Shown piece by piece: positions 29,433 to 33,596 of a DNA stretch of 53,317 bases (position 1 is the stretch's first letter; every line of letters starts with the position of its first letter). The position numbers and the translations under genes are program-made. The DNA is from a virus. A model generated the notes under the pieces. It searched no databases, was not told where the DNA came from, and worked only from the letters and a program-made list of their open reading frames with translations. Location: positions 1 to 53,317 of IMG/VR virus record IMGVR_UViG_3300029248_000010; one strand, written 5' to 3'.

Positions 29433-30011
29433 TCAGTTCTCCTTCTTAACGAATCTACAGCCGGGATCTTTCACACACTCAGCGCAAGCACCGCCCTCTT
29501 TGAGCTGCTTGTAGTCACCGTTGTGAACACAGCCTACACACGGGGTAGCTTTCGCGTAACGATCAAAGTTATGGCAGTCTCCACAAGGGAAGATATGGTC
29601 AGGGATGTTTGCAAACACACAAGACTGACACTTGTAGTTTTCAATGGAAGTCTGCCCGGGAACTTCTCTGTCAATGGTGGTCTGCTCCATGCTGGAGGAT
29701 GTGTTCATCCAGTGCTCAAGGCGGCTCACCTTGCCATTGATGCGCTGCTGGAGATCATAGGGCTTGATGTCGAAAATGTTGATCACATGATCAAGGACAA
29801 TGAGGACGTCAGCGACCTCGTCCAGTGCCTTGGTGTACAAATCATTATGAGCTTTCTCACGGTCAGCGTAACGGGGGTATTTAGCACATACAGCTGCAAG
29901 CTCAGTCAATTCTTCGCAAGAGACCAGAATCTGGTTGGTTTCACCATAGGTGTCACGGGCTTTCTTGAGAATCTGAAGATGTGTGCTGGTAAGATATTTT
30001 GTGTGACTCAT
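29433..30011 (-). CDS. MazG-like all-alpha NTP pyrophosphohydrolase fused to a Cys-rich C-terminal domain
   Basis: 192 aa; ILVSCEELTELAAVCAKY...ALDEVADVLIVLDHV (EExxE...E.aD pattern); C-terminus with CQSC, CGDC, CVGC, CAEC pairs. Confidence 0.6.
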   Translation of the reverse strand: MSHTKYLTSTHLQILKKARDTYGETNQILVSCEELTELAAVCAKYPRYADREKAHNDLYTKALDEVADVLIVLDHVINIFDIKPYDLQQRINGKVSRLEHWMNTSSSMEQTTIDREVPGQTSIENYKCQSCVFANIPDHIFPCGDCHNFDRYAKATPCVGCVHNGDYKQLKEGGACAECVKDPGCRFVKKEN

Positions 30012-30021
30012 ATAGGCCTCC

Positions 30022-30504
30022 TTAACGGTCAGAGTTGTCGTCCATCCAGTCAGTGATGTGACGTACTTTTACATAGTTGATGCGGAAAATATGTTCGGCC
30101 ATGATGGAGATCTCGGCTGTACCACCATAAATGACCTCAGCTACTCCAGCAGCACAAAGAGCTCGGGCACAAGCCTCACAGGGGTAACGGGTCACATAGA
30201 CCGTAGAGCCAAACACCCTCACGCCGTTACGAGCTGCCATAGCTAAAGCATCGATCTCACTATGCAGAGCCATGCAATCAGCCGGTCCACGGTGAGCTTT
30301 ACTGTCATTCCCATGGATCTGCTTACGCCAACATCCCATGAGCTTACAGTTCTGCGGAAGAGTACGATTTGCGCCCATACTGGCAGTAGTTTCAGTACCG
30401 TTGACTCCCTTGGTAATGACACACCCTACTGAGACTTTTTGGCAGCCTGAGTGAGCGATAGCGTACTTGTATGCCATATCAAGCCATTGTTTATCAGTAT
30501 TCAT
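30022..30504 (-). CDS. dCMP (deoxycytidylate) deaminase
   Basis: 160 aa; HSEIDAL (H[AS]E) and YPCEACARAL (PCxxC) zinc-site motifs. Confidence 0.88.
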   Translation of the reverse strand: MNTDKQWLDMAYKYAIAHSGCQKVSVGCVITKGVNGTETTASMGANRTLPQNCKLMGCWRKQIHGNDSKAHRGPADCMALHSEIDALAMAARNGVRVFGSTVYVTRYPCEACARALCAAGVAEVIYGGTAEISIMAEHIFRINYVKVRHITDWMDDNSDR

Positions 30505-30506
30505 AG

Positions 30507-31319: not shown

Positions 31320-32326
31320 AAATCCTCCTCACTGGGAACGTACTTCTTGCGGGGACGCCCTGTACCGTTCATCAGTTTTAGGTACTTGGACAGCTCACAC
31401 ATACAGTTCTCCAGGCTCATGATGTTCATGTAACGGTCTTCCTCAGGGAGATCCCAGAAGAGGGTCTTTGGGTCAAAGTCCTTACCAAGGTGCTTAGCAA
31501 AAAGGTCTTCAAGGTTGTCTCTCAGCCAGAATAGACACTCCTCATAGTTGAGATGATCCCTATTGGTAAACAGGTAGTTAATACCACGCTTGCAGCCGAT
31601 ACCAGCTACCGTGAACTCATTCTCCGAATAAGGAAAATCCTCTATGTAGGTAAAGTCCACAAAGATCTGGTAGGCCAAGAATCGACCAATGCCATTATAG
31701 GCGACGATCTGCTCATAAGCCTCACTCTGATCATCACAGAAGGACAACCTACCTGCAAAGTTTTGCTCAGTAAGGTGCTTCATAAACCAGAGAGGACGCA
31801 TTTCTGCAATGTCCCCGCCCAGATCCTCTGGAACATACTGACTGAAAACGCGCTTCATACCAGAGGTCAGAAATGCACCTGTAAAGAAGACTCGTTTAGG
31901 ATCCTCGTCCAAAGCATCCTGCCAGACGCCGTCGTAATTCTCAGGGTCAAAGCTGCCATCAGAAAACTTTATAGGTAAGTCAAGTAGTTCTGCAGTCTGG
32001 TGCTTGTTATACAGTCGGAATAGGACACAGTTATAGATCTTGTCCGTATAGGACAGCTTTTTATTGGAGGTAATGTGCTCGATGAGCCATTTGGTTTCTC
32101 TGTCGTGCTCACGCCGGACGTTAGTGAACCTGTACTCTGCGAGGATGGTATCAGACGTCCACGGTGCAGACAGCTTGAGCACATCCTTGCGAAGATGGAT
32201 CTGGTAACGACGCTGGATGTAATTATACAGGATTCTTAGGTTGGTGTTGTTGACCGTAGGATTAGCCCCATGGATCTTGAACTGGTTTACACCGCAGTAG
32301 GGGGTATCGTTCAACTTGATCTTCAT
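31316..32326 (-). CDS. HhH-containing enzyme, candidate DNA base-hypermodification protein (aGPT-pyrophosphorylase-like?)
   Basis: 336 aa; YRFTNVRREHDRET, FFTGAFLTSG, YNGIGRFLAYQIFVDF (helix-hairpin-helix GIG motif), NCMCELSKY; family assignment is from memory and context only. Confidence 0.35.
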   Translation of the reverse strand: MKIKLNDTPYCGVNQFKIHGANPTVNNTNLRILYNYIQRRYQIHLRKDVLKLSAPWTSDTILAEYRFTNVRREHDRETKWLIEHITSNKKLSYTDKIYNCVLFRLYNKHQTAELLDLPIKFSDGSFDPENYDGVWQDALDEDPKRVFFTGAFLTSGMKRVFSQYVPEDLGGDIAEMRPLWFMKHLTEQNFAGRLSFCDDQSEAYEQIVAYNGIGRFLAYQIFVDFTYIEDFPYSENEFTVAGIGCKRGINYLFTNRDHLNYEECLFWLRDNLEDLFAKHLGKDFDPKTLFWDLPEEDRYMNIMSLENCMCELSKYLKLMNGTGRPRKKYVPSEEDL

Positions 32327-33018
32327 AAAGCCTCCTTAGTCTTAAAGAACTTGTGATTGCCGATGGTCATTACATGAATGAGGTCAGTCTCATGCCAGTG
32401 AGAGTACTTGCCTCCAACCGTAGAGTAAAAATATTCAATAGGTTCGGAGGTGATTCTTTCTCCCAGGATGAAGACGGCAATACAGGCATCCTCTACATCA
32501 GATTTAGCCTTATCATTATTGAGAGGGGAGGCATACCTATTTGGGAGCTTAACAACCTCTTCCGGGGTCATGTTACGGAGCTGCGCCGTGTCCAGGATGC
32601 ACTGAGCCACAGCCATCTGACCGTCATAGGGCTCGCCCCAGCACTCCTGAGCTACCACTCCCAGCACATAGTCCCAGTCCCAACCGAGATCGGGGATGGT
32701 AGCAGGCTGGTCATACACAGAGTTATTGAATACGAGGGACTCTTCGATGATGGTCTCATCCTCGAGGACGTCAGTTTGCTCGGCGGGGTACATAAGTTCC
32801 TGTTGGAGCTCCCGTGTCTCCTGAAGGACTTCAGAGGACGTCTGAAGGACTTCCTCAACTTCCTGCTGAAGGGTCTGGAACTGCGCACTGATCGTTAGGT
32901 AGCAGCCAACAATGAAGCCCAGTAGACCAGCAGTAATGATGAGGATCAGGTTGGTAATGCTGCGCATACGCTTGTTAATGTAGCGGACACTGTCCGGATG
33001 ATAATAGTAAGACATCAT
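32323..33018 (-). CDS. Membrane-anchored SleB/CwlJ-type cell wall hydrolase
   Basis: 231 aa; TM ITNLILIITAGLLGFIVGCYLTI, coiled coil, then LGVVAQECWGEPYDGQMAVAQCILDTA (Hydrolase_2 signature). Confidence 0.65.
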   Translation of the reverse strand: MMSYYYHPDSVRYINKRMRSITNLILIITAGLLGFIVGCYLTISAQFQTLQQEVEEVLQTSSEVLQETRELQQELMYPAEQTDVLEDETIIEESLVFNNSVYDQPATIPDLGWDWDYVLGVVAQECWGEPYDGQMAVAQCILDTAQLRNMTPEEVVKLPNRYASPLNNDKAKSDVEDACIAVFILGERITSEPIEYFYSTVGGKYSHWHETDLIHVMTIGNHKFFKTKEAL

Positions 33019-33596
33019 ACATTCGCCTCCATAACCTTGGCGGCATACATATCCGCCGTATGTGTCCAGAGGACATTCGGGAACTGCTTGATGATTTTAC
33101 CATAGGCTTCCCAGTCTGCTGTTTCAAAGGCTCCCATGTGATAGCGGATACAGGCCTCCTCCTCAGGGGTAAGCATCATGACCTCTTTGAGCTTGAGTAC
33201 AGAGTCAGCTCCATGCCCGCCGTATGTTTTGTACTCAGGGTTCTTGATGTATAACTCTTGCTCACCAGTGTCAGGATCGACGCCACGTCCAGGAGCGTAC
33301 AGACCAATCTTGGTAACATCATGCAGCACACCAATGATCATCGGACTCTCAGGTCTACTCCATGGTGAGGTGACTCCAGCCAAGGTCATGTGTACGAGCT
33401 GCCATGCCACATTCATGCTGTGCTCAAAGAGGCCACCCTCGTAAGCGGCATGGTACTTACGGGATGCAGGCGCTCTAAAGAAGTCTGTAGAGCACAGCCA
33501 GTAATAGGGGAACGTCTGAACGGGGACATGGGACTTTTCCAACAGCTCCAGGAGGAAGTCTTTCCGCTCCTGTTCGGTCTTAAGATCGTAAAGCAT
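33015..33596 (-). CDS. HD-domain phosphohydrolase
   Basis: 193 aa from ATG 33596 (RBS AAAGGAGA); YHAAYEGGLFEHS...IIGVLHDVTKIG (H...HD). Confidence 0.75.
   Translation of the reverse strand: MLYDLKTEQERKDFLLELLEKSHVPVQTFPYYWLCSTDFFRAPASRKYHAAYEGGLFEHSMNVAWQLVHMTLAGVTSPWSRPESPMIIGVLHDVTKIGLYAPGRGVDPDTGEQELYIKNPEYKTYGGHGADSVLKLKEVMMLTPEEEACIRYHMGAFETADWEAYGKIIKQFPNVLWTHTADMYAAKVMEANV

Follow-up and report, generated by a model that had tools for sequence, protein, structure and literature searches.

A predicted hydroxymethylation and glycosylation pathway in a phage genome that retains a clade-1 pyrophosphorylase-like protein without a DNA kinase

Which base does a phage modify, and by what route, when its genome joins a cytosine-type hydroxymethylase to proteins known from thymine hypermodification? 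The question is raised by IMG/VR virus record IMGVR_UViG_3300029248_000010, whose entire 53,317 nucleotides were analyzed and are referred to here as the window. Both ends carry an exact 99-nt direct repeat (1-99 and 53219-53317), and because a terminal repeat of this kind is the signature of a circular assembly, we regard the window as a complete genome of approximately 53.2 kb; no tRNA genes were found in it. The system under study consists of a run of six minus-strand genes (33596-29433) and a hydroxymethylase block at 18221-20302. With a probability of roughly 0.55, we propose from these genes that the phage would put 5-hydroxymethylcytosine (5hmC) in the place of cytosine as T-even phages do and then glycosylate it, with a further step on a 5-hydroxymethylpyrimidine performed by a protein of family PF18723. 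DNA hypermodification enzymes shape the resistance of phages to restriction and CRISPR, and they serve as tools for mapping 5hmC and 5-hydroxymethyluracil (5hmU).

The gene run, the predicted hydroxymethylase and the families of their proteins

Proteins were assigned using profile searches against Pfam, PHROGs and NCBIfam, and AlphaFold2 (AF2) models were compared with the PDB and BFVD by Foldseek. For comparative purposes we used 23 related IMG/VR loci and three ENA loci, labelled with L-numbers. The features on which the argument depends are as follows.

33627-33655, minus strand: candidate sigma-70-like promoter (TTTACA, 17-nt spacer, CATAAT) within 152 nt of intergenic DNA upstream of the run
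33015-33596, minus strand: HD-superfamily metal-dependent phosphohydrolase of 193 amino acids (aa), first gene of the run (phrog_28876, fold)
32323-33018, minus strand: SleB-like cell-wall hydrolase, Hydrolase_2 (PF07486)
31316-32326, minus strand: clade-1 alpha-glutamyl/putrescinyl thymine pyrophosphorylase (aGPT-Pplase), 336 aa (PF18723)
30507-31319, minus strand: TAGT/JGT-type GT-A DNA glycosyltransferase, 270 aa (PF20691)
30022-30504, minus strand: dCMP deaminase (PF00383, phrog_174)
29433-30011, minus strand: MazG-like all-alpha NTP pyrophosphohydrolase (phrog_2245)
18221-18949, minus strand: thymidylate synthase (TS) homologue with a dCMP 5-hydroxymethylase signature (PF00303)
18946-19350, minus strand: DUF1599 protein (nucleotide modification associated domain 1), adjoining the hydroxymethylase gene (PF07659, E = 5e-9)
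19328-20302, minus strand: radical S-adenosylmethionine (SAM) and SPASM enzyme in a variable slot (PF04055, PF13186)
17459-17935, minus strand: HAD-type phosphatase-like protein beside the hydroxymethylase (NF046079, E = 7e-29, below the curated cut-off; phrog_1238, phrog_24386)

An earlier note on this DNA had described the run as tightly packed behind a promoter, and both descriptions held. The six open reading frames (ORFs) between 33596 and 29433 are separated by 4-nt overlaps or gaps of 2-10 nt. From the HD gene onward, the first three junctions overlap by 4 nt each; gaps of 2 and 10 nt come next, and a last gap of 3 nt leads to a primase/helicase gene (27501-29429, minus strand). We read the run as the promoter-proximal part of a long minus-strand operon for replication and nucleotide metabolism. 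The candidate promoter, read from 33655 to 33627, is a consensus match only, agreeing at 10 of 12 positions and ranking first within 27000-35000. All of the motifs quoted in the note were located at defined residues, and its gene identities were supported by PF18723, PF20691, PF00383, PF07486, phrog_2245 and by phrog_28876 with an HD fold. A check for an unrelated family left the 336-aa protein helix-hairpin-helix (HhH)/glycosylase-like, as shown by its matches to PF18723, to gp46 in Foldseek and to BFVD entries, and a check for envelope families left the glycosyltransferase in a DNA-acceptor family through its TAGT/JGT match. Searching the block by megablast against 50,697 phage records returned no match.

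The TS homologue matched PF00303 with an E-value of 1.4e-32. Its closest solved structure was the CMP hydroxymethylase MilA (E = 5.5e-34), compared with approximately 1e-20 for true thymidylate synthases. Two positions are diagnostic in this family when numbered as in the E. coli enzyme: Asn177 denotes dUMP and Asp177 dCMP as substrate, while Leu143 denotes methyl and Asp or Glu at 143 hydroxymethyl transfer (PMC13326640). In addition, the substitution D169N characterizes 5-hydroxy-dCMP synthase (Lee et al. 2026, PMC13326640). The reference sequences for E. coli and T4 were PDB chains 1AOB and 1B49, which matched exactly. In E. coli ThyA numbering the window protein has Asp143, Cys146, Asp169 and Asp177, and it is identical to T4 gp42 at 12 of the 12 residues lying within 6 Å of C5. 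The same complete identity was found for the TS homologues of every one of the 18 related loci in which the gene is covered, whereas the dUMP hydroxymethylases PaMx11 gp51 and SP10 gp188 differ at four of the 12 positions, with Asn at 177 among them. Since the TS homologue bears a dCMP-hydroxymethylase signature, its first product, and hence the first modified nucleotide, is predicted to be 5-hydroxymethyl-dCMP (hm-dCMP) and not 5-hydroxymethyl-dUMP (hm-dUMP).

Three other assignments of this protein were considered. A plain thymidylate synthase was rejected by L143D and N177D, and a 5-hydroxy-dCMP synthase of the RB69 gp48 type by the retention of Asp169 in the window and all relatives; a dUMP hydroxymethylase of the SPO1, SP10 or PaMx11 type was set aside with Asp, not Asn, at 177. 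Some relatives (L001 3495-4367; L002 3953-4624) additionally encode a FolD-like methylene-tetrahydrofolate dehydrogenase/cyclohydrolase (PF02882), which is absent from the window and from which the hydroxymethylase of those two loci would obtain its one-carbon donor.

The only Pfam match of the 270-aa glycosyltransferase was TAGT, PF20691, with an E-value of 7.2e-14 and 52.6 bits against a cut-off of 27.5. The motif PSYRRP lies at residue 7 and DDD at residue 82, and R11, D82-D84, E181-D182 and D205 were unchanged or nearly so in 25 sequences that included distant paralogues; R...DDD...ED is the motif described for GT-A DNA glycosyltransferases (bioRxiv 10.1101/2023.12.21.572611). JGT homologues of this type hypermodify 5hmC, and metagenomes often show them in linkage with ThyS (bioRxiv 10.1101/2023.12.21.572611; PMC8256090). 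The glycosyltransferase gene overlaps the PF18723 gene by 4 nt (31316-31319), shares genome and operon strand with the hydroxymethylase, and is co-conserved with it in relatives. About half of the relatives have a TAGT gene, which always lies between PF18723 on its upstream side and the deaminase. Comparison of the window with L021 gave a dN/dS of 0.016, and a second TAGT paralogue (TAGT2) adjoins the TS gene in L017 and L033. Placement of the predicted enzyme in the DNA-acceptor TAGT/JGT family, and not in a cell-envelope glycosyltransferase family, is supported.

For the 336-aa protein, the match to PF18723 covered profile positions 4-275 of 281 (E = 8.6e-64; 216 bits against a cut-off of 25). 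It contains YRFTNVRREHDRET at residue 65 and GIGRFLAYQ at residue 212. Pfam calls the family HMUDK_hel because it is fused to a kinase in SP10 gp186, a 5-hmU DNA kinase fusion whose C-terminal half is a PF18723 homologue; in the window the domain stands alone, without a P-loop. The annotation of PF18723 as a clade-1 aGPT-Pplase (Pplase1) follows the names of its BFVD matches. The AF2 model (pLDDT 89.8) has an all-alpha, HhH-containing fold, which in BFVD matched the PF18723 proteins of SP10, PhiW-14 and phiRSL1 with E-values of 1e-8 to 1e-12. Its two best PDB matches were 8z2n and 8z2m, both PaMx11 gp46, with probabilities of 0.87 and 0.80 and weak TM scores of 0.33-0.38. PDB sequence searches with this protein, the glycosyltransferase and the HD protein yielded nothing useful. 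Sequence homologues include PaMx11 gp50 (25% identity, E = 8e-23) and gp154 of the ViI-like Klebsiella phage May (38%); 489 phage records, mostly hmU-type ViI-like and M6-like phages, carry such homologues. PF18723 proteins formed more than 1000 clusters, many of them on contigs of 50-53 kb.

PaMx11 gp46 is a crystallized amino-acid:DNA transferase (AADT) with catalytic Cys247 (PMC11472151), and the Glu and Cys of its motif are essential in the clade-2 transferases (PMC8989533; PMC11472151). An E-x3-C motif (E306, C310) was unchanged across 33 PF18723 homologues, and these residues align with E243 and C247 of gp46. An hhalign comparison of the PF18723 alignment with gp46 had a probability of only 0.9% and was taken for the motif register alone, which MAFFT reproduced. 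The protein matched only PF18723 and not PF18724, the clade-2 AADT family, and a profile built from AADT sequences gave an E-value of 0.46. From these comparisons we place the PF18723 protein in the HhH glycosylase-like aGPT-Pplase superfamily, as a predicted paralogue of the amino-acid:DNA transferases. The characterized transferases belong to clade 2, clade 1 having no demonstrated activity in the literature searched, and M6 gp51 together with the kinase is enough for transfer in vitro without gp55 (PMC8989533). As gp51 is the clade-2 enzyme, we infer that gp55 is the clade-1 paralogue of M6.

The remaining two nucleotide enzymes of the run were assigned as follows. The deaminase matched PF00383 (E = 1.4e-14) and phrog_174 (E = 9e-24), had T4 dCMP deaminase 1VQ2 as its best solved relative, and carries the zinc-binding motifs HSE at residue 81 and PCEAC at residue 108. 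Its gene was found in every relative that covers its position. The sole profile support for the MazG-like protein, which had no Pfam match, was phrog_2245 (E = 1.6e-11). It displays EELTEL at residue 33 and EVADVL at residue 65, followed by a C-terminal domain with CxxC pairs at residues 128, 143, 158 and 176; a histone match returned by the PDB sequence search was judged spurious.

Relatives, the variable slot and the kinase

The run and the hydroxymethylase block are conserved together in at least 20 related phage contigs of approximately 50 kb. This co-occurrence bears out the link that the earlier note had drawn between the run and 18221-20302. The note had also called the two blocks a complete system for precursor supply and decoration; of this, the linkage stands and completeness is not shown, as no dNMP kinase is encoded. 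The genes conserved among the relatives are those for the TS homologue, the DUF1599 protein (in most), and the HAD-like, MazG-like, deaminase, PF18723 and HD proteins. When the window was compared with L021, which likewise lacks the kinase, all genes of the run were under purifying selection, with dN/dS of 0.016-0.087 at a dS of 0.3-0.6; the value for the PF18723 gene was 0.05.

That no P-loop DNA kinase or deoxynucleoside monophosphate (dNMP) kinase is visible, as the note had remarked, proved true of the whole genome. A Walker-A scan, tblastn and profile searches covering all ORFs of at least 40 aa in the complete genome failed to reveal a P-loop 5-hmU DNA kinase, a clade-2 AADT or a dNMP kinase. 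A hidden kinase was rejected, the only P-loops found being those of an AAA_24 ATPase and the primase-helicase.

The relatives differ from the window, and from one another, in a variable slot flanked by the DUF669 gene and the TS block. In most of them the slot holds an AADT-like gene, with a weak PF18724 match, and a PF18748 5-hmdU DNA kinase (E of approximately 1e-23). It is empty in L020, L021 and L022, and in the window it holds the radical SAM/SPASM gene. Examples of the slot are L009 15326-16851, L017 15178-19172 and L005 15445-17475. Some relatives add to it a second TAGT-type glycosyltransferase, a small dNMP-kinase-like P-loop protein, or a trimeric dUTPase/DCD-like gene. The absence of the kinase from the window is best read as a lineage-specific loss or replacement.

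The closest solved structure to the radical SAM protein was the radical SAM dehydrogenase BtrN (E = 1e-6). A search with the single sequence found no relatives of it, and a two-sequence alignment gave one new locus. Outside the window the gene was seen only in L017 (17684-18691; L032 is the same contig) and L033 (8001-8960), in both of which it directly follows a TAGT-type glycosyltransferase gene. Neither L021 nor L022, which share 97% PolA identity with the window, has it. The protein had no homologue among GenBank phages and is unrelated to SP10 gp185.

A proposed route to the modified base and its alternatives

Taken together, the genes suggest the following scheme. The MazG-like NTPase, and possibly also the DUF1599 protein, would hydrolyze dCTP to dCMP, which the TS homologue, whose signature is seen, would turn into hm-dCMP. 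The deaminase would send part of the dCMP to dUMP for thymidylate synthesis by the host, as in T4. Because the phage has no dNMP kinase, host kinases are proposed to make hm-dCTP, which the family-A polymerase of the phage would incorporate. After replication, the GT-A enzyme would move a sugar from a presumed NDP-sugar onto the 5-hydroxymethyl group in DNA. The PF18723 protein may flip out a 5-hydroxymethylpyrimidine and attack C6 through Cys310, assisted by Glu306, in the manner of the clade-2 transferases. Since the genome has no kinase, this protein must work without a phosphorylated substrate, and it would do so with a different leaving group or a partner. The BtrN-like enzyme might tailor the attached sugar, as its linkage to glycosyltransferase genes in three genomes and its distant similarity to BtrN weakly suggest. 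The HD and SleB-like proteins would be co-transcribed with the run.

Several considerations weigh against this proposal. T4 needs the dNMP kinase gp1 for hm-dCMP, and the window genome has no dNMP kinase. The scheme leaves PF18723 unexplained: the protein has the motif of phosphate-displacing enzymes, which act on 5-phosphomethyl-dU, yet there is no kinase. The substrate specificity of the putative MazG-like enzyme is not readable from sequence, and the pathway proposed for this phage and its relatives is deduced from their genes. So far, experiments have connected PF18723 and the AADTs with hmU phages only. Most relatives carry the PF18748 kinase, the characterized member of which phosphorylates 5hmU and not 5hmC (PMC6457204), and the founding TAGT member, JGT, glucosylates hmU (bioRxiv 10.1101/2023.12.21.572611). 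Finally, the role proposed for the PF18723 protein is without precedent, and M6 gp55, its presumed counterpart, is dispensable in vitro (PMC8989533).

The best-surviving alternative, which we consider possible but clearly less probable than the scheme above, is that 5hmU is reached by way of the cytosine nucleotide. The deaminase would convert hm-dCMP to hm-dUMP, 5hmU would replace thymine, the glycosyltransferase would make a base-J-like glycosyl-hmU, and PF18723 would work on hmU; in the relatives, the PF18748 kinase and the AADT would hypermodify hmU as in ViI, M6 and PaMx11. dCMP deaminases accept 5-substituted dCMP, and the gene occurs in every relative covering the position, in the same run as PF18723. 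The kinase and AADT-like gene of most relatives also speak for this route, as does the predominance of hmU-type ViI-like and M6-like phages among the 489 PF18723-bearing records. So do the two biochemical precedents, namely that the characterized 5-hydroxymethyluracil DNA kinase (5-HMUDK) does not phosphorylate 5hmC (PMC6457204) and that the TAGT relative JGT acts on hmU (bioRxiv 10.1101/2023.12.21.572611). However, a dCMP-specific hydroxymethylase is an indirect route to hm-dUMP, and the known hmU phages use N177 enzymes. T4, moreover, carries a dCMP deaminase yet makes no hmU, and no dTTPase or dTMPase was identified in the window genome. Microbacterium phage Luna18, which is compared below, has the trio of TS homologue, PF18723 and glycosyltransferase without a deaminase, so that the trio occurs where no phage enzyme can deaminate hm-dCMP.

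A more far-reaching proposition, which we hold to be unlikely, has two parts that would both apply. In the first, the PF18723 protein would be a kinase-independent enzyme that acts on an unphosphorylated or glycosylated 5-hydroxymethylpyrimidine, with Cys310 at C6, and attaches or removes a group unseen in DNA. In the second, the clade would use an undescribed route to its substrate, either deamination of hm-dCMP to hmU, giving a phage base-J-like nucleotide, or phosphorylation and aminoacylation of 5hmC by a cytosine-specific branch of 5-HMUDK and AADT. Burke et al. had already proposed that such kinases phosphorylate 5hmC in TET clusters (PMC8256090).

Less credible still is a non-enzymatic role, in which PF18723 would be a DNA-binding, base-flipping accessory that presents the hydroxymethylated base to the glycosyltransferase in the window or to the kinase in the relatives. 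The Pfam name, 'helical domain of 5-hmdU DNA kinase', and the fusion to the kinase in SP10 gp186 would fit such a role, as would the 4-nt overlap with the start of the glycosyltransferase gene and the fact that M6 gp55 can be omitted from transfer in vitro (PMC8989533). Against it, the ExxxC motif, whose Cys and Glu are essential in clade 2, is unchanged in clade 1 across the window, ViI-like, PaMx11 and SP10 proteins, and the protein is kept in relatives that have no glycosyltransferase. The idea that the run merely serves ordinary nucleotide metabolism, with a glycosyltransferase for a host surface polymer as in serotype conversion and DNA left undecorated after replication, is very improbable: GT-A enzymes are common in envelope glycosylation and the run also contains a cell-wall hydrolase gene, but the sole Pfam match is to a DNA-acceptor family and is above threshold, the protein has no membrane segment and no flippase or bactoprenol-glycosyltransferase partner, its gene stands between PF18723 and the deaminase in a replication operon, and the second TAGT paralogue of relatives adjoins the hydroxymethylase.

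If the base is simply glucosyl-5hmC, the result is useful but unsurprising, extending T-even chemistry to Firmicutes phages of the gut. The group is of wider interest in two respects. In a large set of phages of approximately 50 kb, a cytosine-type hydroxymethylase stands alongside enzymes otherwise known from thymine hypermodification only, from which one would expect either 5hmC derivatives of the amino-acid or phospho type, or a biosynthesis of 5hmU by a new route. In addition, both the kinase and clade 2 are naturally 'knocked out' in the window genome and its closest relatives, which keep clade 1 under selection and therefore offer a clean background for finding the function of clade 1.

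Described systems, accessory proteins and other genes of the window

Each component of the system belongs to a described family, and the association of GT-A enzymes with ThyS has already been reported. The literature searched contained no description of a cytosine-type hydroxymethylase combined with a clade-1 aGPT-Pplase (or, as in the relatives, with kinase and AADT), of a complete genome that keeps clade 1 without both kinase and clade 2, or of a glycosyltransferase-linked BtrN-like radical SAM gene.

The T-even 5hmC system comprises T4 gp42, the dCTPase gp56, the deaminase Cd, gp1 and the alpha- and beta-glucosyltransferases. The window shares with it the identical 12-residue hydroxymethylase signature, a deaminase closest to T4 Cd, a candidate all-alpha NTPase and a predicted post-replicative DNA glycosyltransferase. 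Unlike in T4, this last enzyme is of the GT-A TAGT/JGT type and not a GT-B alpha- or beta-glucosyltransferase, there is no dNMP kinase, and PF18723, DUF1599, HD, HAD and radical SAM genes are added. The genome, at approximately 53 kb and with Firmicutes-type features (Spo0A_C and SleB-like domains), is also not that of a T4-like myovirus.

The thymidine hypermodification kit of ViI, M6, PaMx11, PhiW-14 and SP10 consists of a dUMP hydroxymethylase, 5-HMUDK, a clade-2 AADT and a clade-1 paralogue (PMC5889632, PMC8989533). Clade-1 PF18723, the deaminase, the MazG-like NTPase, an HD protein and a TS homologue are common to these phages and the window, and the relatives of the window also carry 5-HMUDK and an AADT-like gene. 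The window itself differs in having neither kinase nor clade-2 AADT, in the Asp177 of its TS homologue, and in carrying a glycosyltransferase instead; its HD protein is of a different subfamily from PaMx11 gp52.

A third comparison is with the GT-A DNA glycosyltransferases linked to 5mYOX/TET or to ThyS (PMC8256090; bioRxiv 10.1101/2023.12.21.572611). The glycosyltransferase family and the R...DDD...ED motifs are the same, and association with ThyS was already reported from metagenome mining (Pyle et al.). In the window, by contrast, it is the ThyS homologue that would make the hydroxymethyl group, before replication; the glycosyltransferase gene directly follows a clade-1 gene, with a 4-nt overlap, and is accompanied by a BtrN-like radical SAM gene.

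Among isolates, Luna18 and other Neferthenavirus phages (ON208831, L031 3962-9482) resemble the window in a TS homologue with D143/D169/D177 (gp50), a PF18723 protein (gp53, E = 4e-31), a TAGT-like glycosyltransferase (gp47), a MazG-type NTPase (gp44), a family-A polymerase and the lack of a clade-2 AADT. The complete genome of Luna18 differs in having no dCMP deaminase and no HD gene, and in possessing a second glycosyltransferase (gp45), a gene annotated as 'thymidylate kinase' and an actinobacterial host. No description of the DNA chemistry of Luna18-type isolates was found in the literature searched.

Two further proteins of the run were also analyzed. The HD gene begins with an ATG at 33596 preceded by AAAGGAG, and its 193-aa product is similar in length to its homologues (187-208 aa), although the reading frame can be extended to a TTG at 33638. 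The protein matched phrog_28876 (E = 6e-26) and no Pfam HD model. Its AF2 model (pLDDT 92.3) had leading PDB Foldseek matches that were all of HD fold, none of them significant (E of at least 0.26), and H49, H92-D93, H128, H153 and D182 were unchanged in homologues. Identity with the YfbR-like HD protein of PaMx11, gp52, was rejected on the grounds of subfamily. An identical protein in nr is named 'putative helicase' (Podoviridae sp. ctgHy19, a metagenome assembly deposited as TPA). The likely origin of the name is a weak match with the TraI_2/MobH relaxase HD domain, and we rejected the helicase label for the product of 33015-33596, a 193-aa HD-fold protein.

The SleB-like protein has a hydrophobic N-terminal segment and matched PF07486 with an E-value of 1.7e-6. 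Its gene sits in the early nucleotide-metabolism operon and not in a lysis cassette, with 4-nt overlaps on both sides, and a Hydrolase_2 gene occupies the equivalent position in L001 and L002. The protein probably lies outside the DNA chemistry.

Elsewhere in the window, several genes merit mention. A 245-aa ORF at 23835-24572 (minus strand) matched phrog_757, 'DNA methyltransferase' (E = 2e-61), with no Pfam match; it shares 71 nt with the start of the DNA polymerase gene, and nearly all relatives lack it. The 186-aa protein encoded at 37778-38338 (minus strand) combines a Fer4_12 match (E = 2e-46) with a radical SAM core and resembles NrdG, the activase of anaerobic ribonucleotide reductase, no NrdD-sized gene being seen nearby. 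At 21826-22776 (minus strand) a PD-(D/E)XK exonuclease frame runs uninterrupted for 317 codons and shares 79% identity with the frame of relatives; where those begin, it lacks an ATG, GTG or TTG, and the ORF called there is only 187 aa. The family-A polymerase gene is in three pieces in L021 (10001-13218) and L022 (7935-11152), with intron-, intein- or homing-endonuclease-like insertions of approximately 0.9 and 0.6 kb, while the polymerase of the window (24502-26208) is unbroken.

A minus-strand gene at 36465-36839 encodes the C-terminal DNA-binding domain of Spo0A alone (PF08769, E = 3e-20). Together with the gene for the SleB-like protein and the TS homologue that is nearest among cultured phages, that of an Agathobaculum phage (54% identity), it leads us to infer a host among the spore-forming Firmicutes, and the Spo0A_C protein may possibly interfere with sporulation control in such a host.

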